Source: Candidatus Saccharimonadota bacterium
GTDB lineage: Archaea; Nanohalarchaeota; Nanosalinia; Nanosalinales; Nanosalinaceae
Direction: 5' to 3'
Assembly: GCF_029232205.1 (NCBI RefSeq)
Contig: NZ_CP107255.1
Span: 90,001 to 122,000 of the forward strand
DNA: 32,000 nt
The notes below the pieces were generated by a model. The model was not told where the DNA came from. It was given only the letters and a program-made list of their open reading frames with translations, and made no database searches. Shown here in pieces: positions 6,531 to 32,000 of the stretch. Made by a program: the position numbers and the translations under genes. The stretch's first letter is position 1. Each line of letters begins with the position of its first letter.

Positions 6531-6553
6531 AGAAAATATACGGAACTCGGCCG

Positions 6554-6564: not shown

Positions 6565-6602
6565 TTCATTTTAACCAGCAAGTAGTAATGGAAACGGCCG
6601 TT

Positions 6603-6614
6603 GGTTTTTATACT
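6603..6614 (+). promoter_or_regulatory. BRE/TATA-like element GGTTTTTATACT for the glycogen synthase-PGI-glycosyltransferase operon
   Basis: 22 nt separate it from ATG 6637. Near-identical to the minus-strand element at 6554-6564. Confidence 0.5.
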
Positions 6615-6636
6615 GAGCAAGAAGAACTTATTCAGT

Positions 6637-9539: not shown

Positions 9540-10147
9540 AAGTTCTTTTTCTGGCAAAAGAGTTCAGAGATGGGGAAGGAGTTTCTGAGTATATCAAAAA
9601 TCTTTCAGAATATCTGGTGAGCAACGGTCATGAGGCCACGATCGTATCTTTTGATGATATGGCCGAGTATCACATAGATGAGCGTGTAAGGGTGCAGAAA
9701 GTGCCGCTACCTTTTGAAGGAGATAATATCTATAGCTGGGCCATGATGATGAACAACGAGTTGAAGAACAGGGCGCGTGAAATAATTGAAGCAGATGACT
9801 ACGATATAGTTCACTGCAACGACTGGAGCACGATCCCTGGAGGAGTATCCCTGAAGAAGCATCTTGAACTGCCTCTTGCAGTGACTATCCACTCAACTGA
9901 GAATGAGAGAGGCTTTGAAGGAGATCACGCGGAACTGATCTCTGAGCTGGAGTGGCAGGGAACTTTCGAAGCTGACAGGGTATTTGTAACGAAGGAAGAT
10001 ACCAAAAACTCGGTTTTATTTGACTTAGACGTGCCAGGCGAAAAACTAAAGGCGGTTGACCCCTACAGCCCGGAATGGCAGTCAAGGATTTTAAACACGT
10101 ACAAAGAAATAGTTAAACAAGAGGAAAAAGTTATTCAGGAGACATAG
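9536..10147 (+). CDS. Stand-alone N-terminal-half glycosyltransferase paralogue (GT-B N-domain only)
   Basis: 203 aa. The GTG start overlaps the PGI stop (GTGA). It aligns by eye along its whole length to residues 1 to about 190 of the next gene (HCNDW/HAHDW; TIHSTENERG/TVHSTQEGRDG; ELEWQGTFEA/NLEWYGTYEA) and stops at the inter-domain boundary. The KxGG-like motif is absent. Confidence 0.6.
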   Translation: MKVLFLAKEFRDGEGVSEYIKNLSEYLVSNGHEATIVSFDDMAEYHIDERVRVQKVPLPFEGDNIYSWAMMMNNELKNRAREIIEADDYDIVHCNDWSTIPGGVSLKKHLELPLAVTIHSTENERGFEGDHAELISELEWQGTFEADRVFVTKEDTKNSVLFDLDVPGEKLKAVDPYSPEWQSRILNTYKEIVKQEEKVIQET

Positions 10148-10153
10148 TATAAT

Positions 10154-11296
10154 ATGAGGCCTTTATTTATCACCTGGGAATATCCGCCTTACAAGGCGGG
10201 AGGGATAGCCGCTCACTGTGAGGATCTAGCTACAACTATGGCTGCCCAGGGACACGAACCTGTAGTTCTTACGTACGGCGAAAGAGAAGAATCAGAGTAC
10301 AGAGATGGTGTAGAGATTCGTCGAGTGCCCGCAACTGATGCCGCCAGTGATACAATTTCCTGGGCGATGCATCTAGGCCACCAGATGGAGAAAAAGGCCA
10401 TTGAACTGAACAAACAGAAAAACTTTGATCTTGTCCATGCACATGACTGGATGGCCGTTCCTGGCGCTACAGGTATCAAGAAGACTTTAGGCCTTCCAAT
10501 GGTTTTTACTGTTCACTCCACTCAGGAAGGGAGAGATGGCAGAGATTCCAAGTATCAGGAGACAATCCATAATCTGGAATGGTATGGGACTTATGAGGCC
10601 TCACAGGTCATCACGGTTGGTAGAGAGTTCTCTGAAGAGGTTAAACATCTTTATGAGGTCCCTGAGAACAAGATAAACTATATACCGAACGGTGTTGATC
10701 TTGAAAAGTTCGATTCTCATTCTCATTCTATAAACCATAATGATTACGCCCTTGACTGGGAGAAAATTGTTCTATTCGTAGGCCGGATGTATCCACAGAA
10801 AGGCCCAGGCCATCTTATCGAGGCCATGCCGCAGATCACCAATCAATACGAAGAGGCCAAGTTCGTTATGTGTGGGAGCGGCGCAACACAGTACTACAAG
10901 GATATGGCCAAGTCAAAGATGGGCGACAAGGTACACTTCCCAGGCTATGTTTCGGATAAAGAACTTCTAGGCCTTATGAAGCATGCTGAGATGATGGTGA
11001 CTCCAAGTGTTTACGAGCCGTTTGGAATTGTACCTCTAGAAGCTGCTGCATCAAATACAATGACTGTAGGAAGTTACGTGGGCGGTATGAAAGATACTAT
11101 TGTCCACGAGTATACAGGCCTTCACTCTTACCCTGCTGATCCTAACTCGATCGCTCACCAGGTCAACAGGGCGCTGGAGGATCCTGGCTGGAATGACTGG
11201 ATGGGAGACAATGCCCGTGAACGTGTGGAGGAGAACTTCCAGTGGGAGCAGATTACGGCCTGGACTACAGGAATATATCAGGACGCTCTAAGATAA
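10154..11296 (+). CDS. GT4/GT5-type alpha-glucan (glycogen) synthase-like glycosyltransferase
   Basis: 380 aa. N-terminal YKAGGIAAH (KxGG-like), HAHDW, and C-terminal EPFGIVPLEAAASNT (E-x7-E). Confidence 0.8.
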   Translation: MRPLFITWEYPPYKAGGIAAHCEDLATTMAAQGHEPVVLTYGEREESEYRDGVEIRRVPATDAASDTISWAMHLGHQMEKKAIELNKQKNFDLVHAHDWMAVPGATGIKKTLGLPMVFTVHSTQEGRDGRDSKYQETIHNLEWYGTYEASQVITVGREFSEEVKHLYEVPENKINYIPNGVDLEKFDSHSHSINHNDYALDWEKIVLFVGRMYPQKGPGHLIEAMPQITNQYEEAKFVMCGSGATQYYKDMAKSKMGDKVHFPGYVSDKELLGLMKHAEMMVTPSVYEPFGIVPLEAAASNTMTVGSYVGGMKDTIVHEYTGLHSYPADPNSIAHQVNRALEDPGWNDWMGDNARERVEENFQWEQITAWTTGIYQDALR

Positions 11297-11302
11297 AAAT
11301 TT

Positions 11303-12007
11303 CTAAAGATTTTCAAGCCAGCTGAACATCATATCCTGAATCTTTTTCTCGGCCTCATCGCTTACAGAGTGCTTCTCACCTTTCAACTTGTACAGCATGG
11401 CCTCTCCATCAAAACTTTCTACAGCCTCCGAAGAGTTCTCAAAATGCACTGTGGTGTCGGCGCTACCATGGAAGATCGCAAAGGGAATATCAAGCTCTTC
11501 AAGAGTTTCTTCAAAGCTGTATTCGTCCAGATCATCGTAAAATCCAGGGATTATCGATTTATCCTCGAACAAGGTGAAACTACCTTTCTCCATCACGGCC
11601 TCACGAAACTTCTCCATAATACGGTTATAAGTAACTGGAGACTTTCCTATAACGGCCTCAGCATCCAGCGCCTTTGCTGAATGGAAAACTACTTTCCCAC
11701 CGAAGCTCATACCGAACAGGAAGACTCTTTCAGGATCGAAATACTCTACACAGGCCTTCAGATCAGCTATTTTATCGCTTAAGAACTGCTGTTCGAATTC
11801 TCCATCGCTTTCTCCGTTTCCACGGAAGTCAAGTCTTACTGCGTTAAATCCCTCTTCTGAGGCTCTGACTGCTCTTTCTCTGTAGCTGCCTTTCTTGTTG
11901 GATCCAAAGCCGTGGCAGAAGAAAATCCACTTTTCAGAGTTGGCCTCGTGATGTACTGCTGAAATTTTCTCTCCGTCCTCAACTTCGATGAAGTGTTTCT
12001 CGCTCAT
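11303..12007 (-). CDS. Alpha/beta-fold hydrolase (esterase/lipase-like)
   Basis: ORF 11303..12097 trimmed to ATG 12007 (MSEKHFIEVEDG...). HGFGSNKKG oxyanion region, GMSFGG nucleophile elbow, FHGSADTTV, late His (GEKHS). Confidence 0.7.
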   Translation of the reverse strand: MSEKHFIEVEDGEKISAVHHEANSEKWIFFCHGFGSNKKGSYRERAVRASEEGFNAVRLDFRGNGESDGEFEQQFLSDKIADLKACVEYFDPERVFLFGMSFGGKVVFHSAKALDAEAVIGKSPVTYNRIMEKFREAVMEKGSFTLFEDKSIIPGFYDDLDEYSFEETLEELDIPFAIFHGSADTTVHFENSSEAVESFDGEAMLYKLKGEKHSVSDEAEKKIQDMMFSWLENL

Positions 12008-12030
12008 AACTGTAGTTTTCCTGTTCAGGA

Positions 12031-12038
12031 TTTTATAT
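12031..12038. promoter_or_regulatory. Single AT-rich TATA-like box (TTTTATAT) between divergent starts 12007 and 12060
   Basis: It lies 23 nt from the minus-strand ATG and 21 nt from the plus-strand ATG, in a 52-nt spacer. Confidence 0.35.
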
Positions 12039-12059
12039 CTCGAATAATAATTCTTTGCT

Positions 12060-12815
12060 ATGGTCGACAAAAACCAGGCGAAAAAAGAAATGATCAAGGC
12101 CGCAGAACCCTACGAAGGATACTGGGAGGACTCATACGACTATGTTTTCTCAGTTATGCAGCAGCACTTCCAGAACGGCCCTGGCGAAAAAATGCTGGAG
12201 CTTGGCTGCGGAAGAGGAGAGTTCATAGACAGATATGCAGAATACTTCGAACACATTATCGCTGTAGAGAAAGATCCTAAAAGCAGAGATCAGGCGATGG
12301 AAAAGGCCTACTGGAATGATATAGAGAATATAGAGTTTCTAGGCGATCCAGCGAACGAGGACGGCCTTGATACTGAAAGCTTTGACTTTATCCTCCTGGG
12401 TCAGTCTCTTCAGTATATGCCGGAAGATGATTTCGAGGAGACAATGGAGAAATCGGTGGAGCTCTTGAAAAAAGGAGGCAGAGTAGCTATAATCGTGCCT
12501 CATCGAAAACCAGGCCAGGAAATATACACACAGATATATGCAGATGAGAAAGGAGAATACGTATCTGAAAAAATTGATTCCGAGGCCTTCAATGACCTTG
12601 CAGCTGTCAACAGAGGACCATTGGCGATGAAAAGATTTTCAATCCAGGATTTCCAGAATTTCGAAAGTCTTAATCTCGTTGAGGCCCGTGTCTTCCACGA
12701 TGTTCTCCTGCCCTCCTATTTTGACAGGTTTCTACCACGTGACAGGATCATCAATCTGCCGTTCCTGAAGAAGTATTTCGGTTCTCGCCTGATGCTTGTA
12801 CTGGAGAAGGCCTGA
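12060..12815 (+). CDS. Class I SAM-dependent methyltransferase
   Basis: 251 aa. Motif I LELGCGRGEF, acidic post-I (AVEKD), LLKKGGRVAII. Confidence 0.75.
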   Translation: MVDKNQAKKEMIKAAEPYEGYWEDSYDYVFSVMQQHFQNGPGEKMLELGCGRGEFIDRYAEYFEHIIAVEKDPKSRDQAMEKAYWNDIENIEFLGDPANEDGLDTESFDFILLGQSLQYMPEDDFEETMEKSVELLKKGGRVAIIVPHRKPGQEIYTQIYADEKGEYVSEKIDSEAFNDLAAVNRGPLAMKRFSIQDFQNFESLNLVEARVFHDVLLPSYFDRFLPRDRIINLPFLKKYFGSRLMLVLEKA

Positions 12816-12816
12816 T

Positions 12817-14031
12817 CTACTCGTTCAGTTTTTTCTCTACCTGTCGCTGGAAGTCCATGATGTGTTCTGTTATCACGGCGAATCCCTGGTGTGGATGGTC
12901 GAAGTACGAGAAGTAGTTGTGCACAGATCCGTCCTCCATGCTTTTTGTCGCGATATGATGCAGGTGATCTGAAGTAAGGAATTTTCTCCAGACATCCAGT
13001 ACTTCTGGATCATCAAGCTCCTTGACTCTTTCCTCCAGGTCCTGAAGTTTTTCGAAAAGCATTTTCTGCATCGGGTTACCTAGCCAGGCACTGGCGTCCA
13101 TCTCCTGATCGGCCCAGGAAACAGTATTGTATTCAAATGCGTCAAATTCGCCGACAGGATCTTTCTGAGCTACTTCACGGACCTTCTTGAATTTAAGGCC
13201 TTCACGCCCCGCTATTTCATGTGGAAGATCTTCAAGGAACCACAGAATGCCTGTTCCTTCCCAGTGGTGTTCTCCAAATGTTTCATAGTCCATGAAAAGA
13301 TTGATCATATCTCCCTGGGCCTCATCAAGCCAGGCTGCATACTTGTCGGCGGTTAATGGGTACTCGCTCCACCAGTCAGCTGAGAATCTGTATCCTACGT
13401 CGTCGGTAAGTTTTCTGTTTCTAAGTAGTATATTGGTTTTTTCTCCGTCCATGAAGTCTGGCTGGGTGTATGCGTGGTTAGGTGAGCGCCATCCAAGTAT
13501 TCTACCAGCTCCTTCAGTAAATATTCCCTCGTAGCCTTCCTCGGCTGCAACTTTTCCAATATCATTATGGTAGATAAGCTCTGTATTTGTCATGACTTTA
13601 GGCCTTTTACCGAACTTTTCCTCAATAATATCTCTGTGCTTCTCCAGCTGCCATCTGAACTCTTCTTTATCGAAGAATAATCCTGCAAGAGAGTGGTAGT
13701 GGGCCTGACCGATGAAGTCGATTGAATCGTCCGGAAACTTGTTCAGCATGTCGATAAGTTCAGGGTGGTACTTCTCCGCCTGTTCAATCCAGGAGCTTGA
13801 GATGGAGAAGTTCACGACAAGTTCGTTTCCGGTTCCCTCAAGCTGTCTAGCGGCCCTGAGAAGTCTTTCGGTCGCAGGGAAGTAGCAGTTCTCGGCTACG
13901 TCCTTGAAGAAGTGTTCGTTCATTTCATCGTCAAAATATCTTTCGTAAAGGCTGTCTGCATCCTCTTTTACGCCGTCAATCCTCAGACGGTGAGGTTGGT
14001 GGACCTCGAATGAGAGGGTTAGATCTGTCAT
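12817..14031 (-). CDS. GH57-family alpha-glucan-active enzyme (alpha-amylase-like)
   Basis: 404 aa. N-terminal LSFEVHQPHRL, internal MDYETFGEHHW (GH57 region IV-like). The specificity (amylase vs transferase/branching) cannot be decided from sequence by eye. Confidence 0.75.
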   Translation of the reverse strand: MTDLTLSFEVHQPHRLRIDGVKEDADSLYERYFDDEMNEHFFKDVAENCYFPATERLLRAARQLEGTGNELVVNFSISSSWIEQAEKYHPELIDMLNKFPDDSIDFIGQAHYHSLAGLFFDKEEFRWQLEKHRDIIEEKFGKRPKVMTNTELIYHNDIGKVAAEEGYEGIFTEGAGRILGWRSPNHAYTQPDFMDGEKTNILLRNRKLTDDVGYRFSADWWSEYPLTADKYAAWLDEAQGDMINLFMDYETFGEHHWEGTGILWFLEDLPHEIAGREGLKFKKVREVAQKDPVGEFDAFEYNTVSWADQEMDASAWLGNPMQKMLFEKLQDLEERVKELDDPEVLDVWRKFLTSDHLHHIATKSMEDGSVHNYFSYFDHPHQGFAVITEHIMDFQRQVEKKLNE

Positions 14032-20532: not shown

Positions 20533-21177
20533 TCACCGTTCTTCGAAAAGACTGTCTCCGGCCTCAACCAGATCCTCTTTCTCAAGTTCAGGGAAATCCT
20601 GTAGTTCGTGGCCCTGTTCCATCAGTTCCTGACCTATCTGGTAACTCAGTGAGTATCCTAGCCAGTTAGGGTAGTTTTCTCCTTCTCTATCTATGAAAAG
20701 CGGGTCTGGATAGCTGTACTGCCGGTCAAGCTCTTCCTTGACATCCTCCCAGTACTCCGATATTTTATCTACAGAGTGCTCGTAACGCCAGGGCTCAGGC
20801 GCTTCCGGCACCAGTTTCTCGGTAATATTCTGTGTCAGGCCTTCCTCTATAATGTACATCCACATAGGTTTCTCGCTGTGTTCATCGAGGCCTTTCTGCT
20901 CGGAGAAGTATGCGTGTGCGAACTCATGGACTGAGGTGCCAAGCAGAGCGGTTTCCCAGCCCTCGACATCTGCATTGAACTCGGCCTCGAAGTAGCCGCT
21001 GTTCCATCCCAGGCCTCGAGAACCGTTCATCTGCTCCTTGACAAAATCATCCTCGGTCCAGCCATAACCTACACGTACATCTTCCTCTTTCGGCAATTCT
21101 TCTTTTGCAAGCATTATGCCTTCTTCAACAATGCTCTGAGCTTTCTCAAGCTCCTCCGATGCAGGCCTGTGATTCAT
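20533..21177 (-). CDS. DUF2268-like predicted Zn metallopeptidase (HEFAH)
   Basis: 214 aa. HEFAH encoded at 20914-20928 (verified codon by codon), downstream EEGLTQ (candidate third ligand), YPNWLGYSLSY, and a C-terminal FPELEKEDLVEAGDSLF. Confidence 0.65.
   Translation of the reverse strand: MNHRPASEELEKAQSIVEEGIMLAKEELPKEEDVRVGYGWTEDDFVKEQMNGSRGLGWNSGYFEAEFNADVEGWETALLGTSVHEFAHAYFSEQKGLDEHSEKPMWMYIIEEGLTQNITEKLVPEAPEPWRYEHSVDKISEYWEDVKEELDRQYSYPDPLFIDREGENYPNWLGYSLSYQIGQELMEQGHELQDFPELEKEDLVEAGDSLFEER
20645..20673 (-). repeat. 29-nt block identical to 21280-21308 (encodes YPNWLGYSLS)
   Basis: ctcagtgagtatcctagccagttagggta is present in both paralogues, while flanking DNA has diverged. Confidence 0.8.
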
Positions 21178-21815
21178 TGTAGAAAAATTCTGTCACCAAC
21201 TCTGATAATATCTTCTTTCCCTAACTCGGGAAATTCTTCTGGAGTGTGCTTCTTCAAAAGTTCTTGCCCGATAACGTAGCTCAGTGAGTATCCTAGCCAG
21301 TTAGGGTATTCTGAGCTACTTCTGTTGATGAAAAGCGGTTTGTAGAAGTCTGTGCCTTTTTTCTCTAGTTCCTTTTCTTTGATTTGAGGCCAGTACTCTG
21401 CTATTTCTTCTCTTGAGAACATCGTGGATTTTCTGTGATTGGCTTCTGGCACAAGTTCTTTTGAGAAATGCTGTGTAAGGGCCTCTTCGATTATGTGTTT
21501 CCACATTATCTTGGATCGGCCACTGTTTTTCTCGAAGAACCATGTATGTACATATTCGTGGACTGTAGTCGACTTCAGATTAATTTTCCAATTATCGGCC
21601 TTCGAGTTGAACTTGACTTGCATCCATGAGGGATTAATGGCCTTTCCTGTCGAACCTCCCATCTCCTCAACTACAAAATCCTGGCTAGTCCAGCACACAT
21701 CAATATAGAGCTCTATCTCTTTCTGTAACTTCTCGGAAATTAGGTCAAGGCCTTCTTCAACCTGTTTTTCTGCCTCTTCCATATCCTCTTTTCCAGAATT
21801 TATTCTGTGCTTCAT
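21174..21815 (-). CDS. DUF2268-like predicted Zn metallopeptidase (HEYVH)
   Basis: ORF 21174..22007 trimmed to ATG 21815 (MKHRINSGKED...), which forms ATGA with the redoxin stop and gives 213 aa against 214 aa for the paralogue. HEYVH encoded at 21546-21560 (verified), EEALTQ, YPNWLGYSLSY. Confidence 0.65.
   Translation of the reverse strand: MKHRINSGKEDMEEAEKQVEEGLDLISEKLQKEIELYIDVCWTSQDFVVEEMGGSTGKAINPSWMQVKFNSKADNWKINLKSTTVHEYVHTWFFEKNSGRSKIMWKHIIEEALTQHFSKELVPEANHRKSTMFSREEIAEYWPQIKEKELEKKGTDFYKPLFINRSSSEYPNWLGYSLSYVIGQELLKKHTPEEFPELGKEDIIRVGDRIFLQ
21280..21308 (-). repeat. 29-nt block identical to 20645-20673
   Basis: See the partner feature at 20645-20673. Confidence 0.8.
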
Positions 21816-22360
21816 TCCTTCCATTTTATTGAGCAGCCAACAGGGTCTTCGCGCTCTTCTGGTGGCTCTTTTCTTTTCAGCATTTTTTCGATTGCATCGG
21901 CCATATACCTCTTCTCTACTTCGTCGTCTGGCCCGGCCTTGTCGTTCAACTTGCTGTGGTAGAAAAGTCGGTGGCGCATGTCTAAGAGGAACGGGTCGGG
22001 GGTGCACTCGGCTCCGAACTTCTTCGCGACCTCTTGATCAGGGTCTGAAAGGTAGTAGAAGTGTGCGGATTCCAGGCCTTTCTCCTCGATGAACTCGGGC
22101 ATTTTCTCCTCAGAATCCATAGGGTGTGTCTCCGCGTTTGAGTTGATGCCGACGATTGCGATGGATGAGAACTCGTCGTTCAACTTTTTGATCTCCGGTA
22201 CTTCGGCCTGTACGTACGGGCAGTGGTTGCACATGAAAATTACAAGCACTCCGTCGTAGTTGTCAAGATCAGAAAGTGCCACGTTCTGGCCTTTGTAGTC
22301 TTCAAGTTCGAATTCTGGCGCTGGTTCTCCTGTTTCAAGTACGTTTTCTGAATTGCTCAT
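21812..22360 (-). CDS. Thioredoxin-fold PRX-like (AhpC/TSA-related) protein with CxxC
   Basis: PAPEFELEDYKG, VIFMCNHCPYV, CTPDPFLLD, and a C-terminal GCSIKWK. Start set at ATG 22360; a TTG at 22387 is an alternative. Confidence 0.8.
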   Translation of the reverse strand: MSNSENVLETGEPAPEFELEDYKGQNVALSDLDNYDGVLVIFMCNHCPYVQAEVPEIKKLNDEFSSIAIVGINSNAETHPMDSEEKMPEFIEEKGLESAHFYYLSDPDQEVAKKFGAECTPDPFLLDMRHRLFYHSKLNDKAGPDDEVEKRYMADAIEKMLKRKEPPEEREDPVGCSIKWKE

Positions 22361-22442
22361 AACTTTACAAGGTTGTTGAAGCTTCAAGTTCTTTGGGCGA
22401 CTTATCTTATTTTTGGCGTTCAGAGGCGGTTTTTTCCGGCAG

Positions 22443-24165: not shown

Positions 24166-24636
24166 TTGAACAGACAGGAGTCGAGCAAAAAAGACAAAAG
24201 AATTAGCCTGCATTTTCTATCTATGTTTAGATCAAAGAACCCTGTCGAAAGCTATCATCAACCTGTAATGACTGTTTCTGACGCCGAGATTTCCGATTAC
24301 GTGGCCGCAGTTGGGGAAATAGCTGAGGAAAGGCTGGAAAACCTTCCTGATGAATTGTACGCGTTCCAGCAATCTTACGATATGCTTAACCAGACACTTG
24401 ACGTCTCGGAGACATACGCATTTGAAAGAGATTTTTACAACCAGTTGCTGGAAGGCCTTGGCGATGTGGAATCGAAAAGCGATCTTTTCAGACATGCAGA
24501 TGAGGCAGTTGAGGCCGAAACATTGCTACCCGATTATCTGAGAGCTCTGGATATTTTCAAGGCAAGAACAGAAGGTATGAGAGGCCTTATGCTTCAGGAA
24601 GTCTTTGAAGAGGCCAAGGAAGAGCTTGAAGGCTAG
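24166..24636 (+). CDS. Hypothetical acidic protein
   Basis: ORF from TTG 24166; in-frame ATGs at 24223 and 24268 are alternative starts. I recognise no family. Confidence 0.4.
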   Translation: MNRQESSKKDKRISLHFLSMFRSKNPVESYHQPVMTVSDAEISDYVAAVGEIAEERLENLPDELYAFQQSYDMLNQTLDVSETYAFERDFYNQLLEGLGDVESKSDLFRHADEAVEAETLLPDYLRALDIFKARTEGMRGLMLQEVFEEAKEELEG

Positions 24637-26915
24637 TCAAAGTAGTCCATAATATTTTCACGGTCGAAGATATTTTCCTCGCCGACCTGTTTCTTCAGCT
24701 TCTTGGCAGTTCTCTTACCTATCAATTTTTTCAATTTCTCAAAGCTGACCTCTCGAATATCCTCCATATCTCTGACGCCATTATCATGAAGTTTACGGGC
24801 TCTTACCCGGCCAATCTGATCATATTTAACCAGGCTCAGAAGCTCCTCTTTTATTCCATGTTTCAGCCTTATTCTCAGTTTTTCAAGATCTTTATCAGTA
24901 TCTAGTTCCTCTGTGCGGGCCAGTTCCTTCGCTGCGTATACCAGCCAGTCAGCGTTCCGCATCTTGGCCCTTATTCCTCCAGGCGCAATGTTGAACTCGT
25001 TCATCAGTTTTTCCTCGTCGTTCTCGCCGATCCAGGCCTGCATCATCGCAGCTGTCTTCATGGAGTTCATAAATGACTCGTACTCGACATCCCATTCGTT
25101 AGGTATTGACTCCAGCAGGTAGTCGCGGGCATCCATCAACATCTGCTCGTAGTCACTCCACTCCTTATCTTTCACTCTCAGAGGAGGATTCATCTCGGAG
25201 GTACGGGCCAGCATGAAAAGATAGGATACCGGCTTGACTGCTTCCTTCTGCTGTGCTTTCTCAAGGGATTGAAGCATTCTGTGGGCGGAATCAGGATCAA
25301 TATACAGCTCTGAGACTCTTCTGCCGACCTTTGTGGCCTCAAGCTCTTCTTCATGCAGAAAGCCGTAATCTATCAGCTGATCGACCACGTCCTTGATCTG
25401 GGCCTCTACCTCGCTCATCTCCTCGAACTGGTGGGCGTAGAAAGTCTTCTTGTAGAAGCTGAGGAGTTCGTCCATGTCTGTACAGAACTTTGAGGCAACT
25501 AGTGCAAGTGTATGCATTCTGAGTACTGGTTTTACTGCCAGTTTCGACTGTATTCTCTCTGGCTCGCCAAGAATATACCTATTCAAAATTTCGTCCTTCA
25601 TTCCGGGGTTCTTTGCTATAGATATGGCCTCTCCACGATCGTCGTACTTCGGTCTTCCTGCCCTGCCGGTCATCTGCTCGTACTCCAGGACAGGTATGAA
25701 GTCCATGCCGCTGCCGGTGTACCTTTTGAGATCTCTGATTATTACTCTAAAGGCCGGAAGATTGACTCCTGCAGCGAGAGTCGGTGTAGCGGATACCGTT
25801 CTGATCAGGCCTTTACGAAATGCCTCTTCCACAAGGTTTCTCTGCTCTGTGACGAGGCCTGCGTGGTGGAAGGCTGCTCCCTTCCTCACGTTTTCCGCAA
25901 GTCTCTTGCACTGCGATGTTGGCGATCCCAGTACGTTAACGATTCTGTCTGCGTATTCTTCCAGTTCCTGGCGTTCCTGGTAGTCGATATCGTTGTCAGT
26001 TACTTTTCCAGCTCGATCACTGCTTTTTTCAGCTCCTTTCCTCGAGTTGCAGAATACAATGGCCTGTTTCTCCTGTTCAAGAGTGTCTTCAATTATGTTT
26101 GTAACTCCGCGGCCGTGTACGTCGTCGATGAACTCTGTACGGCCTTCATCCTTTTTCTCTTCCTGCTTCTTCACTTCGGCCCCGGTCTTGAATCCTTCAG
26201 GGGCGCTGGAGTCGTCTTCTTCATCGATTTCTTCGTCACCTGTAAAGAACTCTACCTCGTTCTGCCAGTAGACTCCGTGCTCGAGATCTACAGGCCTGTA
26301 GCTGGATTCGACCAGTTCTGCGTCAAGCCATGTAGCTAGCTCGCTGGAGTTGGAAATTGTGGCAGACAGGCCTAGCATCTGGAAATCAAGCAGCTCTCTG
26401 AGTCTTGTAAGGGTCACTTCCAGTGTAGGCCCTCTTTCTGGAGAAGTTAGTAGATGGATTTCATCTGTTACTACGAGGCCTATGTTGTGGATCCATGAAG
26501 GGTTGTGGCGTAGCATAGAATCTAGTTTTTCCGATGTCGTTACTACGATGTCTGCGTTGTCAAGGCCTTTTCCTTCGTCGTCAAGATCTCCTACAGAGAT
26601 TCTCACGTTAAGGTTTTCGTATCTTTCAGAGAAGTCCTGGTATTTTTCAGAGGCCAGGGCCTTCAATGGTACTATGTATACTGCTGTTTTTTCCTGTTTG
26701 ACGACCTGGTTGACCATCGCGAGCTCGGCAATAAAAGTCTTCCCTGAGGCCGTTGGAGAGGCCACTATCATGTCGTCTCCGTCCATTAATCCTGAGTTAA
26801 CGGCCTTTCGCTGTGGAGGATTCAGTTCTGTGATTCCTTCGTCTATGTAGTCTTTCTTGATTCTGTCAGGTATCTCAAGGTTCTCCACTTTGATCTCCTG
26901 GTTTTGATTGCTCAC
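24633..26915 (-). CDS. hel308: Hel308/Ski2-like DNA helicase
   Basis: 760 aa, GTG start. ASPTASGKT (motif I), DEIH (motif II), SATISN (III), QMTGRAGRP (VI), and C-terminal ratchet/HhH-like region. Confidence 0.9.
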   Translation of the reverse strand: MSNQNQEIKVENLEIPDRIKKDYIDEGITELNPPQRKAVNSGLMDGDDMIVASPTASGKTFIAELAMVNQVVKQEKTAVYIVPLKALASEKYQDFSERYENLNVRISVGDLDDEGKGLDNADIVVTTSEKLDSMLRHNPSWIHNIGLVVTDEIHLLTSPERGPTLEVTLTRLRELLDFQMLGLSATISNSSELATWLDAELVESSYRPVDLEHGVYWQNEVEFFTGDEEIDEEDDSSAPEGFKTGAEVKKQEEKKDEGRTEFIDDVHGRGVTNIIEDTLEQEKQAIVFCNSRKGAEKSSDRAGKVTDNDIDYQERQELEEYADRIVNVLGSPTSQCKRLAENVRKGAAFHHAGLVTEQRNLVEEAFRKGLIRTVSATPTLAAGVNLPAFRVIIRDLKRYTGSGMDFIPVLEYEQMTGRAGRPKYDDRGEAISIAKNPGMKDEILNRYILGEPERIQSKLAVKPVLRMHTLALVASKFCTDMDELLSFYKKTFYAHQFEEMSEVEAQIKDVVDQLIDYGFLHEEELEATKVGRRVSELYIDPDSAHRMLQSLEKAQQKEAVKPVSYLFMLARTSEMNPPLRVKDKEWSDYEQMLMDARDYLLESIPNEWDVEYESFMNSMKTAAMMQAWIGENDEEKLMNEFNIAPGGIRAKMRNADWLVYAAKELARTEELDTDKDLEKLRIRLKHGIKEELLSLVKYDQIGRVRARKLHDNGVRDMEDIREVSFEKLKKLIGKRTAKKLKKQVGEENIFDRENIMDYFD

Positions 26916-27208
26916 ATATTATCTCTGACTGCAAAACTCTTATGGCTCATTGATGGCGGAAGATTTCTGTCGTTAAGATGTCTTAGCTAGGCCTAAAAAA
27001 GCTTGTGATATTCTCTTCAGAGAACAAAAGAGGGCCGCTCTATGCTTTATAGTCAAAGAGTATAAAAGAATAGTTTCTTTTTTCCTTTCCACGGGGAACC
27101 AACAGAGGGGTATAACATGAAAGATCATACCAAACGATTTAGAGGTAATTCTTTTTCCGCATATCCAAAATCCAATTCTAAAACAAATAATCAGGCCATT
27201 TAGAGGCC

Positions 27209-27216
27209 GGAGGTGA
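27209..27216 (+). promoter_or_regulatory. Shine-Dalgarno-type site GGAGGTGA, 6 nt before ATG 27223
   Basis: Strongest SD-like match in the window. It contrasts with the leaderless-looking genes elsewhere. Confidence 0.6.
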
Positions 27217-27222
27217 ACAATT

Positions 27223-28284
27223 ATGAATTTGAAGAAAGCACTCAAGCACGACGTACAAGTCGCAGGCAAGACCATTCCAACCATGATTCTAGTAGGTCTC
27301 TTCCTAGTTGGAGGAGGATCCGCAGCACTGCTTACAAACTTTGGAACAGTTTCCAGAACAGCAGATGTAGATCAGGCAGTTACGTTTGATGGTCCAGAGA
27401 CTTTCGAGTTTTCCGCAGTAGGAGGTCAATCAGACTACCAGACTAGCACGGTGACTAACCATCTCAACAGTTCTGCTCCGGTTAGAGTAATAAGTTCGGT
27501 AAAGAACACTCCGTCTACAGATAAGGAAACGACATCTGGAACCTCTCTTGAGACATCGAGCATTCTACTCAAGAACGGGAAAACTTACAGTGTCGTGAAT
27601 GATGATGCAGGGGAGTCTTCAGCTAGCTTCGTGATGGTTGATGGAACGCCCGCAGTTAGGGCTACCGCTTCTTATGAGAAAGAACCTGATCAAGCTGGAG
27701 AGGTCTCAGCAGGATTATTCTTCAACGCCTCAGGAACTTTAATGAATAGTTCTACACAGACTCCGACAACATTCACGGTAGATTATCAGGGATCTGGACA
27801 GAATGTTCAGAAGCCAGATTGGATTTATGCTGTAGTCTCTACTTCGGATCAAGATTACATGATTCTTGATCCTACAGTAGAAGCCGATTCTGGTGCTCAG
27901 GTCTCTTGGAGTGGCGATGGATTCACCAACGGGGATGCTGTGGTCTATGAAGTTTCCGAAGTTGACTCAGCGCAAACCAAAGGAGACTTCCAGTTCGGCA
28001 CTAGATATGGGCCAAGTGACGGCACTGACCCAGTAGGCCCATTGAATCTCCATGGTGCAGAGATCAGATATGTTGGTGTAGGTACAGGAACCAACTACGA
28101 TCAGAGCTCTCACGAAATCTATTACACTGGTTTCCAGTTCAATGGAGAGCAGTTGATCAAGTCTGGAAGCGATTTCAATGCAGACTTGCCTTCTGGTGAA
28201 TCTCAGATTGGAACTGTTGCAGATGCAAATCTGGCTGCAGTACCTGGAGATTATACCGTAGGCTTGAACGTTACAACTCAGTAA
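27223..28284 (+). CDS. Secreted/surface protein, candidate major structural subunit (N-terminal signal-anchor plus FGTVSRTADV motif)
   Basis: 353 aa. One N-terminal hydrophobic segment (TIPTMILVGLFLVGGGSAALL). Cys-free, T/S/G/D/V-rich body with N-x-S/T sequons. The post-signal motif is shared with the next gene. Confidence 0.6.
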   Translation: MNLKKALKHDVQVAGKTIPTMILVGLFLVGGGSAALLTNFGTVSRTADVDQAVTFDGPETFEFSAVGGQSDYQTSTVTNHLNSSAPVRVISSVKNTPSTDKETTSGTSLETSSILLKNGKTYSVVNDDAGESSASFVMVDGTPAVRATASYEKEPDQAGEVSAGLFFNASGTLMNSSTQTPTTFTVDYQGSGQNVQKPDWIYAVVSTSDQDYMILDPTVEADSGAQVSWSGDGFTNGDAVVYEVSEVDSAQTKGDFQFGTRYGPSDGTDPVGPLNLHGAEIRYVGVGTGTNYDQSSHEIYYTGFQFNGEQLIKSGSDFNADLPSGESQIGTVADANLAAVPGDYTVGLNVTTQ

Positions 28285-28308
28285 ATCTCTCTTTTGAGAG
28301 GAGTTAGG

Positions 28309-28361
28309 AGCAGGCCTTGGTAGGCTTTCAGGCCGGTGTTCGATTCCCGGCCCTGCTTTTT
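28309..28361 (+). terminator. GC-rich nested hairpin (tRNA-like) followed by T5
   Basis: AGCAGG (28309-28314) pairs with CCTGCT (28352-28357). The inner stem G(G)CCGG/CCGGC(C) (28331-28336 / 28347-28352) has a loop tgTTCGATTc. TTTTT at 28357-28361 directly precedes ATG 28362. Confidence 0.45.
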
Positions 28362-28823
28362 ATGGATAAGAAGAGTGTTTTTGTTGGCTTCATGGCCTTG
28401 TTTTTGTTTGGTGCTGGTTCTGCCAGTGTTTTGGCTAGTTTTGGAACTATCAGTGGTACTGCTGATGTTAAATCTTCGTTACGTATAACAGAGATTCACT
28501 GGAATGAGAGCGCCGATCCAGGTTATGAGTACATTATAATAGAGAATAGGGCTCCAAAGTCTATTCAGGTTTCTAATATTCTGGTGGGAGACTCTGGTGG
28601 AACTGATGAGGATGGGCTTCAGGGAGCTACTGAGATTAAATCAGGTCAGACTGCTACAATTACAGGAGACGAAGTCTCTTCAACTTCTCTTGGAAGCGAT
28701 CTTCATTTGCAGGTTACTGACACAGCTATTGCAGATAGTGGCCTTAATAATGGTGGAGAGACTCTCTACTTGAAATTAAATGGAAATAAAATTTATGAGA
28801 AAACTTACTCGGGTGATGATTAA
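28362..28823 (+). CDS. Secreted lamin-tail-domain (LTD) protein with FGTISGTADV post-signal motif
   Basis: Start set at ATG 28362 (MDKKSVFVGFMALFLFGAGSASVL). The TTG 28317 start (with AGGAG 6 nt upstream) is the alternative but would encode the hairpin. The body LRITEIHWNE..YEYIIIENR...NNGGETLYLKLNG reads as an LTD beta-sandwich. Confidence 0.6.
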   Translation: MDKKSVFVGFMALFLFGAGSASVLASFGTISGTADVKSSLRITEIHWNESADPGYEYIIIENRAPKSIQVSNILVGDSGGTDEDGLQGATEIKSGQTATITGDEVSSTSLGSDLHLQVTDTAIADSGLNNGGETLYLKLNGNKIYEKTYSGDD

Positions 28824-30064
28824 TGATTAAGAAGCTACTATTAACGGCCTTTGTTTTGATGTTGGTGTCCGGTGTTTCGGGCCAGACTTTGCAGGATTTT
28901 GAGTACAGTCCTGGTAATGATTTCCAGTTGAACTTGACTGGCGGTGAGTCTTTCAGTGTTGATGCGGACTTTACGAATGCTGTTAGCAGGCCTGTTCCTG
29001 TTGCAGTGGAGGTTCGTGTTGATGGAGATCTTCCTATGAGTTCTTCAGGTGAAGAGTTTGATCTTTCTGGATCTACTGTTGATGCTGAAGGCCTTGAGTT
29101 CTCCGACTTTGATTACTACAAGAAGAATGGTGATGGTTTCTATACCTCTACTTTGAATGGTAGTGTCTCGGAGGACTTTGATTCAGGTGTTTCACTAGTG
29201 TTTGATTCCAGTACTTTGATTCAGCCTGATACTTACAGTTTTGATGTTAAGGTTAGATCTGAGATTGGTTCTAATTCTTCTGCATCTTCGAATGCAAGTG
29301 TGAATGCTTCGGAGCCTGCGGAGGTTTCATCAGGCAATGCAAGAGTGAAAGTTAATGCCTCGGATAACGCCAATGTTACTGTTCAGAGTTTGGGAAGTGT
29401 CTCGACTCAGCCTCCTCAGTCCAGAACCAACTTTGTAGGCGGTGTCTCAGTCGATGTCAGAAATAATACAGGAAAGGTTGAGGCCTCTGGTACGGTTACG
29501 ATCACTTATTCGAACAATGCCTTTGACGATGATGATATGGCTGTCTACTATTACAATGATACTAGCGGTGAATGGGAGTTTGAAGGAGGAACTCATTACC
29601 CTGGGAACAACTCGATTGTAGCGGATGTGGATCATTTCTCGACCTATGTTGCTTACCGCAGCCAGCCTGACACAGATGATGACAATGATGGTGGTGGCGG
29701 TGGCGGCTCTACAAGCTCCGATGATCAGGCCCAGGATGAAACAACTACTGTAAATGAAGATACTGAGCCAGAGGAAACTGCTCCGGAAGAAGATTCCTCC
29801 TCTCAGGGCCAGGAACAGAATGAGACCGATCAGGCCCAGGATGAAGAGCAGCAACAGCAGAATAATACTGAAACAGGTCAAGAAGATGCTCAGCAACCTG
29901 AAGGCCCTCAGAACCCGCCTAGAACAGGACTTTTCACAGCCAACCCTACCAGTATTGCAGGAGGCCTTGCATTCCTGATTCTGGTGCTGGCAGCTGGATT
30001 ACAGTACACGGGAAGAATTGATTTTAGAGAAGTTCCTGAGAAGGTCAGAAGTTACAGAGGGTAG
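28823..30064 (+). CDS. Surface-anchored putative glycoprotein (Sec signal, PGF-pre-PGF-like domain, acidic/Gln stalk, C-terminal TM anchor)
   Basis: 413 aa. The ATG overlaps the previous TAA (TAATG), with GGGTGAT upstream. Signal ...LVSGVSG|QT, many N-x-S/T sequons, YYYNDTSGEWEF...DHFSTYVAY, a G6 run, and the TM helix IAGGLAFLILVLAAGL followed by a basic tail. Confidence 0.6.
   Translation: MIKKLLLTAFVLMLVSGVSGQTLQDFEYSPGNDFQLNLTGGESFSVDADFTNAVSRPVPVAVEVRVDGDLPMSSSGEEFDLSGSTVDAEGLEFSDFDYYKKNGDGFYTSTLNGSVSEDFDSGVSLVFDSSTLIQPDTYSFDVKVRSEIGSNSSASSNASVNASEPAEVSSGNARVKVNASDNANVTVQSLGSVSTQPPQSRTNFVGGVSVDVRNNTGKVEASGTVTITYSNNAFDDDDMAVYYYNDTSGEWEFEGGTHYPGNNSIVADVDHFSTYVAYRSQPDTDDDNDGGGGGGSTSSDDQAQDETTTVNEDTEPEETAPEEDSSSQGQEQNETDQAQDEEQQQQNNTETGQEDAQQPEGPQNPPRTGLFTANPTSIAGGLAFLILVLAAGLQYTGRIDFREVPEKVRSYRG
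29669..29920 (+). repeat. Low-complexity D/E/Q/T/G-rich stalk-coding region with an 18-nt direct repeat
   Basis: gatcaggcccaggatgaa occurs at 29723-29740 and 29828-29845 (encoding DQAQDE twice). A ggt/ggc run encodes G6. Confidence 0.8.
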
Positions 30065-30079: not shown

Positions 30080-30505
30080 TTATCTTCTTTCTCTGTACTC
30101 GGTGATTAGGCCTTTAATCTTCTGGTCGTTTTTTATCTCCAGAGTGTTGCGGAAGTAGGAGTAGATTCTTCCTATACTATCTGTGTCAAGTGATTCCAAG
30201 GCCTTTTCCACGGGCTTCTCATTTTCTGTTTCTTTTTCATCTTTGTAGGATTCTGGTTCCAGAATGTGTTTTACAGGGCCTTCTTGATAGGTCTCTACGT
30301 AGAGTGCTTCCCATGTTGCAGGATTATTTTCGGTCTTAAGTATTGTGTCTGTGTCGGCGTGTTTCAGTACGCGGCCAACGAAATCAGGTTCCAGTTCTTC
30401 GCTGAATTCTGCTATGTCGCTGCTGGTGAAGGAGCTTGTTTCCTCGTTGATGTATTCCTCTATTACTGGCATTACTTCTTCCTGGTATCGGAGTTCCCAG
30501 CTCAT
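30080..30505 (-). CDS. Hypothetical acidic protein (141 aa)
   Basis: ATG 30505 lies 4 nt downstream of the ThyX-like stop on the same strand. I recognise no family. Confidence 0.45.
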   Translation of the reverse strand: MSWELRYQEEVMPVIEEYINEETSSFTSSDIAEFSEELEPDFVGRVLKHADTDTILKTENNPATWEALYVETYQEGPVKHILEPESYKDEKETENEKPVEKALESLDTDSIGRIYSYFRNTLEIKNDQKIKGLITEYRERR

Positions 30506-30509
30506 GCGA

Positions 30510-32000
30510 TCACGTGTGCAGATCTGTTTCTCCTGGCTGAATCCTCATCAATTCTTTCACCGGGGCGTTTCTGTATACGTCCTTGATGCCTTTTCCTTCA
30601 GGGTATTCTTCCAGGCCTAGCAGCCATGGATATTCTCTGGCTGCTTCTTCTGCCAGGTTGAATGCGTCTTCACGGTATGAGAAGTTTCCTTCAGGCGTTG
30701 ATCGCAAGTTTACAAAGTATTGAAGCTGATCAAGGCCTATGCTCATAGTAATTGTTGTCATTGTAGCCATTGGCAGGACGTACTGCGCCTGCAGTTTGAA
30801 GTCCTCTCTAATCTGTTTTTCCGCTTCGTGCGCTATCTGCATTGTCTCTTCAAAGAGTTCTCCTGCTTTCTCAGGCATTTCATCGACTACTTCTGGCCTG
30901 TAGTATCCCATGTCGAGGCTGTAGATGTTTTCTCCTCTATCGTTTTTCTGGTGTCTTCTCAGATCTCTTAGAGCGCCTACATCTGTTTTTATCTCGATCG
31001 TCAGTTTCTCGATGTCATATTCTTCGTTGCGGCCTACCCATTCATCGTAGGTGTTCCGGCCCTCGACTGTTCTCTCCAGCACATCGATTTTCTCGTTGTA
31101 GCTCATCTCCTCTGACTTCTGGAAGGCCTGTTTGAAGCTGCAGGAGTTGTTTTCCTTGAGGGTGTGGGCCACTAGCTTGTTGAGAAGGTTTTCTGGCGCG
31201 GATATTATTTCAACTCCTTTTTCGATTTCCTCTCCTTCTGAATCCATTTCAAATTCGCCGTTGTACAGATTTAGTTTATCGGAGCGGTATTCGCTTTTCT
31301 CCGTGTATTTCAGTAGTGAAGGCGCTATCTGGCCTCCTGAGTCTTCCAGTTTCTCTGCTGCGTCGTTCATTTCGCTGAGAGGGCTGCTTTTCCATGATGC
31401 GATGTCAAATTCTGTGCTTCTGGCGTCAAGCGCCCAGGCAATGTTTGTCTGAATGGCCTGCGGAAGAAGAAATCTTGCGATGTCAAGGGCCTTTCCGTCG
31501 AGTTCTCTCTTGTATTTTCTCTCTAGGAAACCTTCTGATTTCTCCTGTGTTTCTTCTGATTGTTTTTCCAGCCATTCTTCGTAAGGTAGTTGTTCTCTGT
31601 AGTATTCTTTGGCTATTTCTGTGAACTCCTTGTAGTTTTCGGTCATTTTCTCGATGGTTTCTGTGTATTTTTCGGAGTGCTCGCTTTCCATGATGTCTGG
31701 ATCTTTGTAGTAGTTGTCTTTGTCGAATTCTACGTAGCGGGTGCTTTGTTCGATGAAAAATGCTAGCTGGTCTTCTGCAAGTTTTCTCGCGAATATCTGG
31801 CTGACGTCATTTGCTACGAACGGAATCCAGACAGTGTTTGCAATTGATTTGTGGCCGTATGTTCCGTAGTATTTTTCAAAGAAGCTCTGGGATTTTTCAA
31901 GGCCTGATTGAAGGCCTTTCTGCGGGTGTTCGTAGATATCTCCTTCTTTTTCGTCTGCTGTTCTTGCCAGTTTCTCCAGTCTTTCTTCGCCGCCTTCTAT
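30510..32000 (-). CDS. Tandem-repeat ThyX-like (Thy1-domain) protein, N-terminus outside window
   Basis: The listed ORF starts at M 31691. I translated 31692-32000 in the same frame and found no stop (103 sense codons), giving ...YGHKSIANTVWIPFVANDVSQIFARKLAEDQLAFFIEQSTRYVEF... The protein has two ThyX-like halves (GH.S / S.RY / AR.LLP..T....DARS, then ALRDLRRHQ / AQYVLPMAT...NLRS). Confidence 0.65.
   Translation of the reverse strand: MEGGEERLEKLARTADEKEGDIYEHPQKGLQSGLEKSQSFFEKYYGTYGHKSIANTVWIPFVANDVSQIFARKLAEDQLAFFIEQSTRYVEFDKDNYYKDPDIMESEHSEKYTETIEKMTENYKEFTEIAKEYYREQLPYEEWLEKQSEETQEKSEGFLERKYKRELDGKALDIARFLLPQAIQTNIAWALDARSTEFDIASWKSSPLSEMNDAAEKLEDSGGQIAPSLLKYTEKSEYRSDKLNLYNGEFEMDSEGEEIEKGVEIISAPENLLNKLVAHTLKENNSCSFKQAFQKSEEMSYNEKIDVLERTVEGRNTYDEWVGRNEEYDIEKLTIEIKTDVGALRDLRRHQKNDRGENIYSLDMGYYRPEVVDEMPEKAGELFEETMQIAHEAEKQIREDFKLQAQYVLPMATMTTITMSIGLDQLQYFVNLRSTPEGNFSYREDAFNLAEEAAREYPWLLGLEEYPEGKGIKDVYRNAPVKELMRIQPGETDLHT

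Follow-up and report, generated by a model that had tools for sequence, protein, structure and literature searches.

A nanohaloarchaeal three-gene locus that may encode a modular cell-surface complex with a shared N-terminal peptide, exchangeable ectodomains and a stalked membrane anchor

In a window of 32,000 nucleotides (contig NZ_CP107255.1, positions 90,001 to 122,000 of the forward strand) we analyzed three adjacent genes, here called P1, P2 and P3, whose products match NCBI 'hypothetical proteins' of Candidatus (Ca.) Nanohalovita haloferacivicina with 100% identity in all three cases. This organism, the source of the window, is a cultivated ectosymbiotic nanohaloarchaeon with Haloferax as its host (PMC10266531). 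We argue, with about even confidence, that the three genes encode a modular cell-surface complex in which a strand adaptor resembling that of TapA and TasA mounts variable ectodomains on a conserved anchor. The observations which carry this argument are the structure of the genes, a motif that is shared by P1 and P2 and co-evolves in them, its conservation, the synteny of the locus, the breakpoints at which ectodomains were exchanged as cassettes, and the structure of an RNA element between P1 and P2. A preliminary description of this DNA, made by a model from the letters alone, had already taken the three genes for a secreted or surface module, which is supported by the conservation of the trio across nanohaloarchaeal loci, and had considered an ectosymbiotic nanohaloarchaeon as the organism, which was correct. 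Three features were absent from that description: the exchange of ectodomains, the breadth of the P1 family and the tRNA-like element between P1 and P2. The fibre and the division into major and minor subunits which it suggested are hypothetical.

When P1 and P2 were compared by BLASTP, 16 of 31 residues at the N-terminus were identical (E 2e-7) and the rest of the two proteins remained unaligned, in agreement with the earlier claim that both share a stretch behind their N-terminal hydrophobic segment. Within the window a six-frame scan found the motif in P1 and P2 only. The gene order Hel308 (on the reverse strand), P1-like gene, gene for a small motif-bearing protein and P3-like gene was kept in 14 nanohaloarchaeal loci, including those of the complete genomes SG9 and Nanosalina VS9-1, and G.GSA..L..FG.(V/I)SGTA.V was present on genes 1 and 2 in 14/14 of them, so that no orthologue lacking the motif was found in these loci. 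When 185,579 species genomes were scanned at the DNA level with a degenerate pattern of the motif, five nanohaloarchaeal loci were recovered, besides one chance match in Arthrobacter. The complete genome SG9 gave two matches only, those in genes 1 and 2. We conclude that the motif belongs to this module alone and does not mark a general sorting class. The module is not universal at the Hel308 site, because in Nanohalococcus occultus DHFR/ThyA directly follow Hel308 and the module is absent from the syntenic position (PMC10266531 supplement, SVXNc_0147-0152). In the 13 positions after the cleavage region, P1 and P2 of the window have nine residues in common, and genes 1 and 2 of the non-halophile locus L014 have ten (IPYFG.I.G.VTV), whereas P1 of the window and P1 of L014 agree in three of the same 13. 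Since the motifs are more alike within a genome than the P1 motifs are between lineages, the two copies co-evolve. A matching lineage-specific variant of the motif is carried by the gene next to P1 in L014 and in L025, a PolD-encoding archaeal contig that is likewise non-halophile (SATIIPYFGKIVGSVTV; SAGLLDYFGRITGSVTV), and the last gene of L014 resembles P3 in having a glycine run, TGF, a transmembrane (TM) helix and a basic tail. Distant non-acidic members of the P1 family follow the scheme [KR].V.[FL]G[KR].[IV]P, helix, SAALL.Y[YF]G.ITG...V.Q. In the peptide the small or hydrophobic residues (G, V/I, G, A, V) alternate with polar ones, as they would in an edge or groove beta-strand.

Comparison of closely related loci at the DNA level separated the constant parts of the module from the exchanged ones. 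Between L019 and L023 identity was 87% over P1 codons 1-54 and none in the P1 ectodomain, then 85% from the RNA element to about P2 codon 39 and none in the P2 ectodomain, and 97% from the start of P3 on. Similarly, L003 and SG9 were 96% identical up to P1 codon 55, shared nothing until the P1 stop and were about 90% identical thereafter. The breakpoints of exchange lie immediately after the shared peptide and at the gene ends of loci which are otherwise 85-97% identical; the leader with the peptide and P3 are constant, and the ectodomains of P1 and P2 are exchanged. At the protein level the mature part of P2 is 98% identical between L003 and SG9, as compared with 35% for its signal peptide. 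In the same pair of loci the P2 signal peptide and the type of the RNA element were swapped together.

The same division was evident across the whole P1 family. We collected 31 homologues of P1 and built a profile from them; at E<=1e-3 it matched 475 representatives (50% clusters), of which 249 remained at E<=1e-10. Common to the family are about 55 N-terminal residues, the first strands after them and the last ~25 residues, with the C-terminal consensus F..V..F...L.P.DYTV.T.V.P; the middles are unrelated to each other and include NosD-like beta-helices. Relatives of P1 were absent from the phage and plasmid collections, and one distant member labelled 'Thermotogota' stands on a 3-kb contig, probably owing to a binning error. 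The P1 of the window is, as described before, a cysteine-free protein of 353 residues with glycosylation sequons, of which we counted four, and it is rich in G, T, S and V. Neither P1 nor P3 matched any Pfam or NCBIfam family or any PDB sequence. The AlphaFold2 (AF2) model of P1, based on a 31-row alignment, was all-beta, with a predicted local distance difference test score (pLDDT) of 70.7 and a predicted template modelling score (pTM) of 0.67. Confidence was best at residues 51-100 and 280-353, which form a base sandwich from both termini (the strands 325-335 and 342-352 reached pLDDT ~90), and the middle was less certain. Residues 27-43, the region of the motif, stayed at pLDDT <50, and the peptide is therefore unpacked in the monomer model.

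P2 had been read as a lamin-tail domain (LTD) protein, and this reading was largely supported: it matched PF00932 with E 1.4e-7 and 32.3 bits, which is just under the gathering score of 34.3, over profile positions 4-107 of 109, its Nanosalina VS9-1 orthologue reached 49.1 bits (E 8.6e-13), and the precomputed Pfam label of P0055, the NCBI protein identical to P2, is PF00932. The LTD of P2 is near full length and begins directly after the motif. P2 orthologues were taken from the loci; a word-indexed homologue search with P2 matched P2 alone. They carry the motif in all loci, followed by an LTD or by a different small domain, and in five other loci no LTD match was obtained. We took ATG 28362 as the real start of P2 because TTG 28317, the start given in the list of open reading frames (ORFs), lies inside a structured RNA element and was ruled out.

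P3 has 23 homologues, which are syntenic with those of P1. Its composition (12 N-glycosylation sequons, a G6 run, a stalk rich in acidic residues and a hydrophobic helix at the C-terminus), its AF2 model and its hydrophobicity profile confirmed what had been noted of it, namely a Sec leader, sequons, a beta region, a stalk and a C-terminal TM helix. The AF2 model (pLDDT 72.4) consists of a leader helix, two sandwiches, a disordered stalk, a TM helix and a short cytoplasmic helix, the last two at residues 375-395 and 401-412. In Foldseek it resembled generic sandwiches only (ZU5, GOLD, MAM/meprin). Across the family W251 and HFS.Y at 271-275 are invariant, T-G-x-F stands 4-8 residues N-terminal to the TM helix, and a conserved tail of about 20 residues follows beyond it. 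PGF-CTERM sorting of P3 was rejected, as the invariant is T-G-x-F, the tail is retained and no archaeosortase sorting-signal model of NCBIfam matched; LPXTG sorting was rejected as well, the 'PPRTG' of P3 not being conserved in the family. A 676-aa surface protein encoded two genes downstream in L001 (11937-13967) also ends with a TM helix and LQYSG.ID like P3, which suggests a common C-terminal anchor class in nanohaloarchaea.

The way in which P1 and P2 are exported bears on the role that the peptide may have. The P1 leader combines a conserved basic n-region (K..LKHD..V.GKT.PT), a hydrophobic region (h-region) and GGGSA ending in an invariant S-A. In a logo of 136 P1-family members the anchor A was present in 100%, S or T before it in 99% and G, A or V two positions before it in 92%, and this [G/A/V]-[S/T]-A sits upstream of the motif, after a 10-15-residue hydrophobic core which ends in glycines. 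P2 leaders are of textbook form, with MKYAK or MKKK, 11-15 hydrophobic residues and (G/V)SA. A second candidate site inside the motif (S-G-T-A, with the cut before D-V) fits the -3/-1 rule in halophiles and reads G-x-V in non-halophiles. Since the upstream S-A is invariant and the in-motif site is lost in non-halophiles, we infer that cleavage falls after S-A or one residue later, and the shared motif is then most likely the mature N-terminus of P1 and P2. In type IV pilins the class III signal has a [K/R]-[G/A] cut site directly before the hydrophobic helix, and the helix is kept in the mature protein. By inspection, such a prepilin signal was rejected for both proteins, as P1 has [FL]-G-[KR] without a basic residue at -2 and P2 is without any such motif. 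The Tat pathway is regarded as likely inactive in this genome by the published annotation (PMC10266531).

The preliminary description had taken the motif as the mark of a substrate class of a dedicated signal peptidase. This appears weak, because the motif is limited to two adjacent genes in the complete genome SG9 and because an ordinary invariant AXA-type site lies upstream of it, so that the motif is likelier retained. A stricter form of this idea, in which the motif would be the extended c-region of a special signal peptide, recognized by one of the three type I signal peptidases of this genome in a SipW-like logic, removed after ..SGTA and before DV and left without any mature role, seems to us decidedly unlikely. 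The G at -3 and the A at -1 of the halophilic motif do fit the -3/-1 rule, but the would-be -1 residue is V (G-x-V) in non-halophiles, which is poor for signal peptidase I, and the S-A upstream is invariant. The globular domains start right after DV, as such a removal would have it, and this genome (BNXNv) is reported to have three type I signal peptidases, whereas Nanohalococcus, which is without the module at its Hel308 locus, has a single one (PMC10266531); on the other hand, a motif on two genes per genome is not a substrate class. The window contains no peptidase, sortase or secretion gene, as the preliminary description had said of a cognate peptidase or sortase, no S24/S26 peptidase was found in the window or the syntenic loci, and TIGR04088, the SipW-cognate signal, had no match among the P1-family members or the window proteins.

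Several observations weigh against the strand-adaptor interpretation. The hydrophobic segment of P1 and P2 spans 22-24 residues and is long enough for a permanent TM anchor, and even very distant members keep the n-region of P1 ([KR].V.[FL]G[KR].[IV]P), a degree of conservation that is not usual in a leader that is discarded. In a Foldseek search of the P1 model against PDB there was no match at E<=0.001, the best hits being generic jelly-rolls and CBM-like sandwiches, and the 50 best hits included no pilin of the TasA, archaeal bundling pili (ABP), thread, cannula or Tafi kinds. The P1 profile had no match to PDB sequences at E<=10 in a library which includes TasA (8AUR, 5OF1), and PF12389 was not matched at E<=1 by P1 or any of the 31 family members, nor was TIGR04088. 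In the distant non-halophilic locus L024 (7178-9161) the place of a motif-bearing gene 2 behind the P1-family gene is taken by genes for a dockerin-like and a cohesin-domain protein. The intergenic RNA folded alone gave a z-score of -0.76, which is not significant, and in the literature searched no filaments of this kind are reported for nanohaloarchaea.

The first two of these observations could be explained if P1 and P2 were uncleaved type II signal anchors, with G.GSA..L and the juxtamembrane FGT.SGTADV stretch forming a hetero-oligomer interface with the TM helix and TG.F of P3, and with the cytoplasmic tail of P1 binding an intracellular partner. Small-xxx-small patterns in P1 and P2 (G.GSA) and in P3 (AGGLA), a small hairpin which AF2 places in the conserved P1 n-region, and globular domains that begin directly after the motif would all agree with such an arrangement. 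We consider it unlikely, since the invariant [G/A/V]-[S/T]-A after a glycine-interrupted h-region is a textbook type I signal-peptidase site, and since the P2 n-regions are short and variable like those of ordinary leaders; moreover, the swap of P2 signal peptides independently of the mature part, as seen between L003 and SG9, is unexpected for a TM interface. Similarly, the suggestion of the preliminary description that the module is linked to TasA and camelysin or to the ABP pilins found no support in hidden Markov models, in the sequences of solved structures or in the fold search, and homology of P1 to TasA or camelysin was rejected as negative or inconclusive by all of these. An hhalign comparison of TasA residues 28-261 (verified against PDB 8AUR) with the P1 profile gave a probability of 5.8%; the pairs which it aligned, LVGGGSAALL with LVGGGTWAAF and SGTADV with SGTLDL, are a low-probability lead only. 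As P1 showed no sign of membership in the TasA/camelysin family, our claim is that the module works like TasA and not that it is a TasA.

What speaks for a strand adaptor is that, given cleavage at S-A, a major and a minor co-encoded protein would share their mature N-terminal strand. We propose that P1 and P2 are exported via Sec and that an ordinary type I signal peptidase cuts them after [G/A/V]-[S/T]-A, so that both mature proteins would start with a common peptide of ~15-20 residues, (A)LL..FGT(V/I)SGTADV. This peptide would act as a strand adaptor (donor strand) and dock unrelated ectodomains into one acceptor, which may be a beta-sandwich of P3, the conserved base sandwich in the P1 subunit that comes next, or both. 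P2, with a complete Ig-like LTD and a free strand, could donate and not accept, and would thus start or cap the assembly, and P3 would anchor it by its glycosylated acidic stalk and its C-terminal TM helix. Two geometries are conceivable: P1 may polymerize, or P1 and P2 may each dock on one of the two P3 sandwiches. Since only adaptor and anchor need constancy, the exposed domains of P1 and P2 can be exchanged as whole cassettes, and host recognition or viruses probably supply the selection for this. In this proposal we infer the cleavage site, strand docking, polymerization, RNA processing and the host-contact role from the observations named at the outset.

A comparable logic is known from TapA-SipW-TasA of Bacillus subtilis and from AbpA/AbpB of Pyrobaculum, where likewise a major secreted beta-rich subunit and a small Ig-like protein have their mature N-terminal residues in common. 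Mature TapA starts with AFHDI and TasA with AFNDI, only the N-terminal strand being common to both, and TapA has a complete Ig fold, donates only and starts the fibre (PMC10151520). In TapA/TasA and ABP the N-terminal strand is inserted in the next subunit and the small protein is a donor only (PMC10151520, PMC9674648, PMC9245690). In ABP loci no pair other than AbpA and the TapA-like AbpB is conserved, and a generic signal peptidase processes both (PMC9245690), and the module resembles ABP also in having a locus without a dedicated peptidase gene. By analogy, P2 corresponds to TapA/AbpB, P1 to the accepting and donating subunit and P3 to the anchor. Unlike the TasA and ABP systems, to which we detected no sequence or fold relationship, P1 appears as a split base sandwich with an inserted exchangeable domain and the operon includes a gene for a stalked TM anchor; polymerization of the module is a prediction. 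The haloarchaeal Tafi locus, which encodes the pilins TafA/TafE, the tip TafC, the membrane anchor TafF and the peptidase TafD/TafG and varies in its structural genes, likewise combines strand-donating subunits, a tip or minor protein and a membrane anchor (PMC12337348). However, Tafi pilins mostly have Tat signals and their own signal peptidase, and the leaders of the module are Sec-type without a linked peptidase. In chaperone-usher pilins, too, subunits with differing bodies begin with a conserved N-terminal extension, in which small or hydrophobic residues alternate and a glycine is conserved, and donate-only subunits set the polarity; the similarity is no more than an analogy, since the module has neither a periplasm nor a chaperone or usher. 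Cohesin-dockerin assemblies are another plug-and-socket scheme, which the P1-family gene of L024 with its dockerin-like and cohesin neighbours brings to mind, and neither domain was detectable by Pfam in the window proteins.

Furthermore, two RNA elements lie between P1 and P2. The first, a hairpin directly after the P1 stop, reads CCUCUC/T-rich loop/GAGAGG in most other loci and CUGAGC...UCAG in L010 and L020; this hairpin could terminate transcription or stabilize the 3' end, and its T-rich loop could be a TATA box ~23 nt before the second element. This second element is tRNA-like, with a 6-bp acceptor-like stem, a mini hairpin with a UGGU loop, the T-arm CCGG(U)G-UUCGAUU-CCCGG and a discriminator U, and without an anticodon arm. 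It is single in the window, and in 13 loci a spacer of 1-7 nt separates it from the P2 ATG. Built from six other loci, a covariance model recovered the window copy at 40.4 bits (E 3.9e-8) and found exactly one copy per nanohaloarchaeal locus in 13 of 14; there was none in L021, where only an 8-bp hairpin is left, and none in the non-halophile loci. In the alignment, which was fitted to the structure model, as is to be kept in mind with all pairing and covariation figures, 99.4% of cells were paired and four of 13 pairs showed compensatory changes: acceptor pair 4 is G-C in 8 and A-U in 5, acceptor pair 6 is G-C, C-G, U-G or U-A, and a mini-hairpin pair is C-G in 5 and G-C in 5. The covariation score was 0.311 as against 0.141 for shuffles, 0/500 of which reached 0.311, and <=0.091 for slid controls. 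A scan of metagenome DNA for the element gave four chance matches only, in high-GC coding DNA. ARAGORN found 0 genes and Rfam nothing at gathering score or E<=10, and a tRNA, a split tRNA and an integration site between P1 and P2 were rejected; its conserved position and covariation therefore make it a tRNA-like element and not a gene remnant or attachment site. In three loci an extra insert of ~55-60 nt stands between hairpin and element (L003 7429-7484; L012 7214-7269; L009 (-) ~5415-5475), with the conserved sequence CTCGGCGAACC...GGTTTGACCG.TTTAGAAAA...

In Haloferax, RNase P and tRNase Z make precise cuts at the two ends of t-elements, which, like the element described here, mimic acceptor and T-arm within a longer transcript (PMC4946936). 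Unlike them, the P1-P2 element is flanked by two protein genes of a surface operon, has no anticodon arm and stops 1-7 nt short of a start codon. By this analogy, it is probably an RNase P/tRNase Z processing signal. Hairpin and element together would probably uncouple the expression of P1 from that of P2-P3, and a cut by RNase P or tRNase Z would give rise to a P2-P3 mRNA almost without a leader, which would fit the absence of a Shine-Dalgarno (SD) sequence before P2. Indeed, in a comparison of the 32 window genes for anti-SD matches no SD was found upstream of the P2 ATG. The three genes had been credited with the clearest SD leaders of the window; this held for P1, where GGAGGTGA was the longest match of the 32 genes, and not for P3, where the GGGTGAT upstream of ATG 28823, a start which overlaps the P2 stop as TAATG, is an ordinary 6-nt match, with several other window genes doing as well or better.

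This strongest SD, the hairpin after P1 and the core-genome location suggest high expression of P1 and would also suit a two- or three-component surface layer (S-layer), with P1 as a variable outer lattice, P3 as a stalked anchor as in SlaA/SlaB of Sulfolobales, P2 as an accessory and the peptide as the contact between lattice and anchor. The module is like SlaA/SlaB and the haloarchaeal S-layer glycoprotein in having a variable outer protein, a conserved stalked anchor with a C-terminal TM helix and an N-glycosylated acidic or Thr-rich spacer near the membrane, and the build of P3, with its Sec leader, beta-sandwiches, spacer and C-terminal TM helix, the hypervariability of P1 as against the conservation of P3 and the N-glycosylation sequons agree with this. 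We nevertheless hold an S-layer to be very unlikely: no homology to these systems was found, and P3 has T-G-x-F and a retained tail (LQY.GRI) instead of PGF-CTERM; the genome annotation puts S-layer glycoproteins at four other locus tags (PMC10266531), to which the window genes have not been matched; Nanohalococcus is without the module at the syntenic site; and P1 is small (327-524 aa), with many members containing adhesin- or tailspike-like beta-helices. For the docking step the S-layer explanation and the strand-adaptor interpretation overlap.

No description of the module, the motif or the RNA element was found in the full-text literature, where papers on nanohaloarchaea with 'donor strand' were absent and nothing relevant was found for DPANN with lamin tail; the genome paper names other surface proteins (PMC10266531). 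What would be novel is a strand-adaptor surface assembly built from protein families without detectable homology to known ones, with cassette exchange and tRNA-like punctuation as unusual additions. More tentatively, and with rather less confidence than we have in the adaptor itself, the module may represent a new archaeal strand-complementation class after ABP and threads, cannulae and Tafi, widespread in nanohaloarchaea and in other, probably DPANN-like, archaea, in which an N-terminal plug would mount hypervariable adhesin cassettes that set host specificity on a stalked anchor, and stoichiometry would be controlled by tRNA-like punctuation leading to a leaderless downstream mRNA. How DPANN symbionts recognize their hosts and attach to them is an open question, for which attention has so far been on giant proteins, e.g. 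SPEARE-like ones, and the locus offers a small and tractable alternative, as a core-genome operon in the cultivated nanohaloarchaeon-Haloferax system. Wholesale exchange of ectodomains between near-identical strains, with peptide and anchor kept constant, is the pattern expected of a specificity determinant facing host or virus. If true, the TapA/TasA logic of a shared N-terminal strand would extend to families without detectable homology, and the locus would show that in nature a protein-coding operon of an archaeon can be punctuated by a tRNA-like element. The features of the locus are listed in Table 1.

Table 1. Features of the three-gene module and related positions. Coordinates are those of the window unless a locus is named.
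Feature	Position	Strand	Extent	Basis or remark
SD-like GGAGGTGA	27209-27216	+		6 nt upstream of P1 ATG 27223
P1 gene	27223-28284	+	353 aa	ORF; variable-ectodomain subunit
P1 predicted Sec signal peptide	27223-27324	+	aa 1-34	Family logo, hydrophobicity profile; putative cleavage
P1 shared peptide	27325-27381	+	aa 35-53	ALLTNFGTVSRTADVDQAV
P1 motif FGTVSRTADV	27340-27369	+		Within P1 shared peptide
P1 conserved C-terminal strands	28195-28278	+	aa 325-352	..IGTVADANLAAVPGDYTVGLNVT; family consensus, AF2
Hairpin CUCUC-UUUU-GAGAG	28287-28300	+		Directly after P1 stop; present at that position in all loci
tRNA-like element	28309-28358	+	50 nt	Ends 3 nt before P2 ATG
P2 gene	28362-28823	+	153 aa	ATG 28362; same as NCBI protein P0055; small secreted subunit
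P2 signal peptide			aa 1-21	
P2 shared peptide	28425-28469	+	aa 22-36	
P2 LTD Ig-like domain	28467-28808	+	aa 36-149	Pfam LTD
P3 gene	28823-30064	+	413 aa	ORF; conserved anchor protein
P3 two beta-sandwiches	28898-29662	+	aa 26-150, 157-280	AF2 pLDDT 80-97
P3 stalk, G-run and D/E/Q/T-rich, disordered	29684-29944	+	aa 288-374	AF2 pLDDT <50
P3 invariant T-G-x-F	29924-29935	+	aa 368-371	Family alignment
P3 TM helix and cytoplasmic tail	29945-30061	+	aa 375-395; tail LQY.GRI..RE aa 393-413	AF2, hydrophobicity, alignment
tRNA-like element, L001	7608-7652			
tRNA-like element, L003	7485-7533			
tRNA-like element, L012	7270-7315			
Hel308, window	24633-26915	-		
Hel308, L012	1705-5595	-		
Hel308, L020	1-3204			
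Hel308, L023	1-3110			

The genes to the left of the module are housekeeping genes, for glycogen and sugar metabolism, DeoC aldolase, FBPase and Hel308. A 103-aa ORF at 26973-27284 (-) overlaps the P1 start and its SD and is very likely spurious. The Hel308 of the window (760 aa) is without an intein, and those of SG9, L020 and L023 (~1240-1300 aa) carry a LAGLIDADG intein. Downstream of P3, in a region with the genes 30080-30505 (-) and 30510-31691 (-), a ThyX-like protein is encoded which is unusually long (393 aa) and matched Thy1 with E 2e-18, its score for the NCBIfam thyX model being under the cut-off. At its position several other nanohaloarchaeal loci have DHFR and ThyA, so that thymidylate synthesis beside the module looks like a case of non-orthologous displacement. 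Farther upstream, two tandem paralogues with overlapping stop and start codons, 20533-21177 (-) and 21174-22007 (-), encode predicted Zn-proteases (DUF2268), and a peroxiredoxin ORF (21812-22387) overlaps the second of them by nearly 200 nt, for which reason its true start is probably later. Finally, positions 1548-14031 hold a dense glycogen and sugar cluster with phosphoglucomutase, an ADP-dependent kinase, TIM, a debranching-enzyme-like GDE_C protein, glycogen synthase, three GT4 glycosyltransferases and a GH57 enzyme, and part of this cluster was found again near the module in L005.

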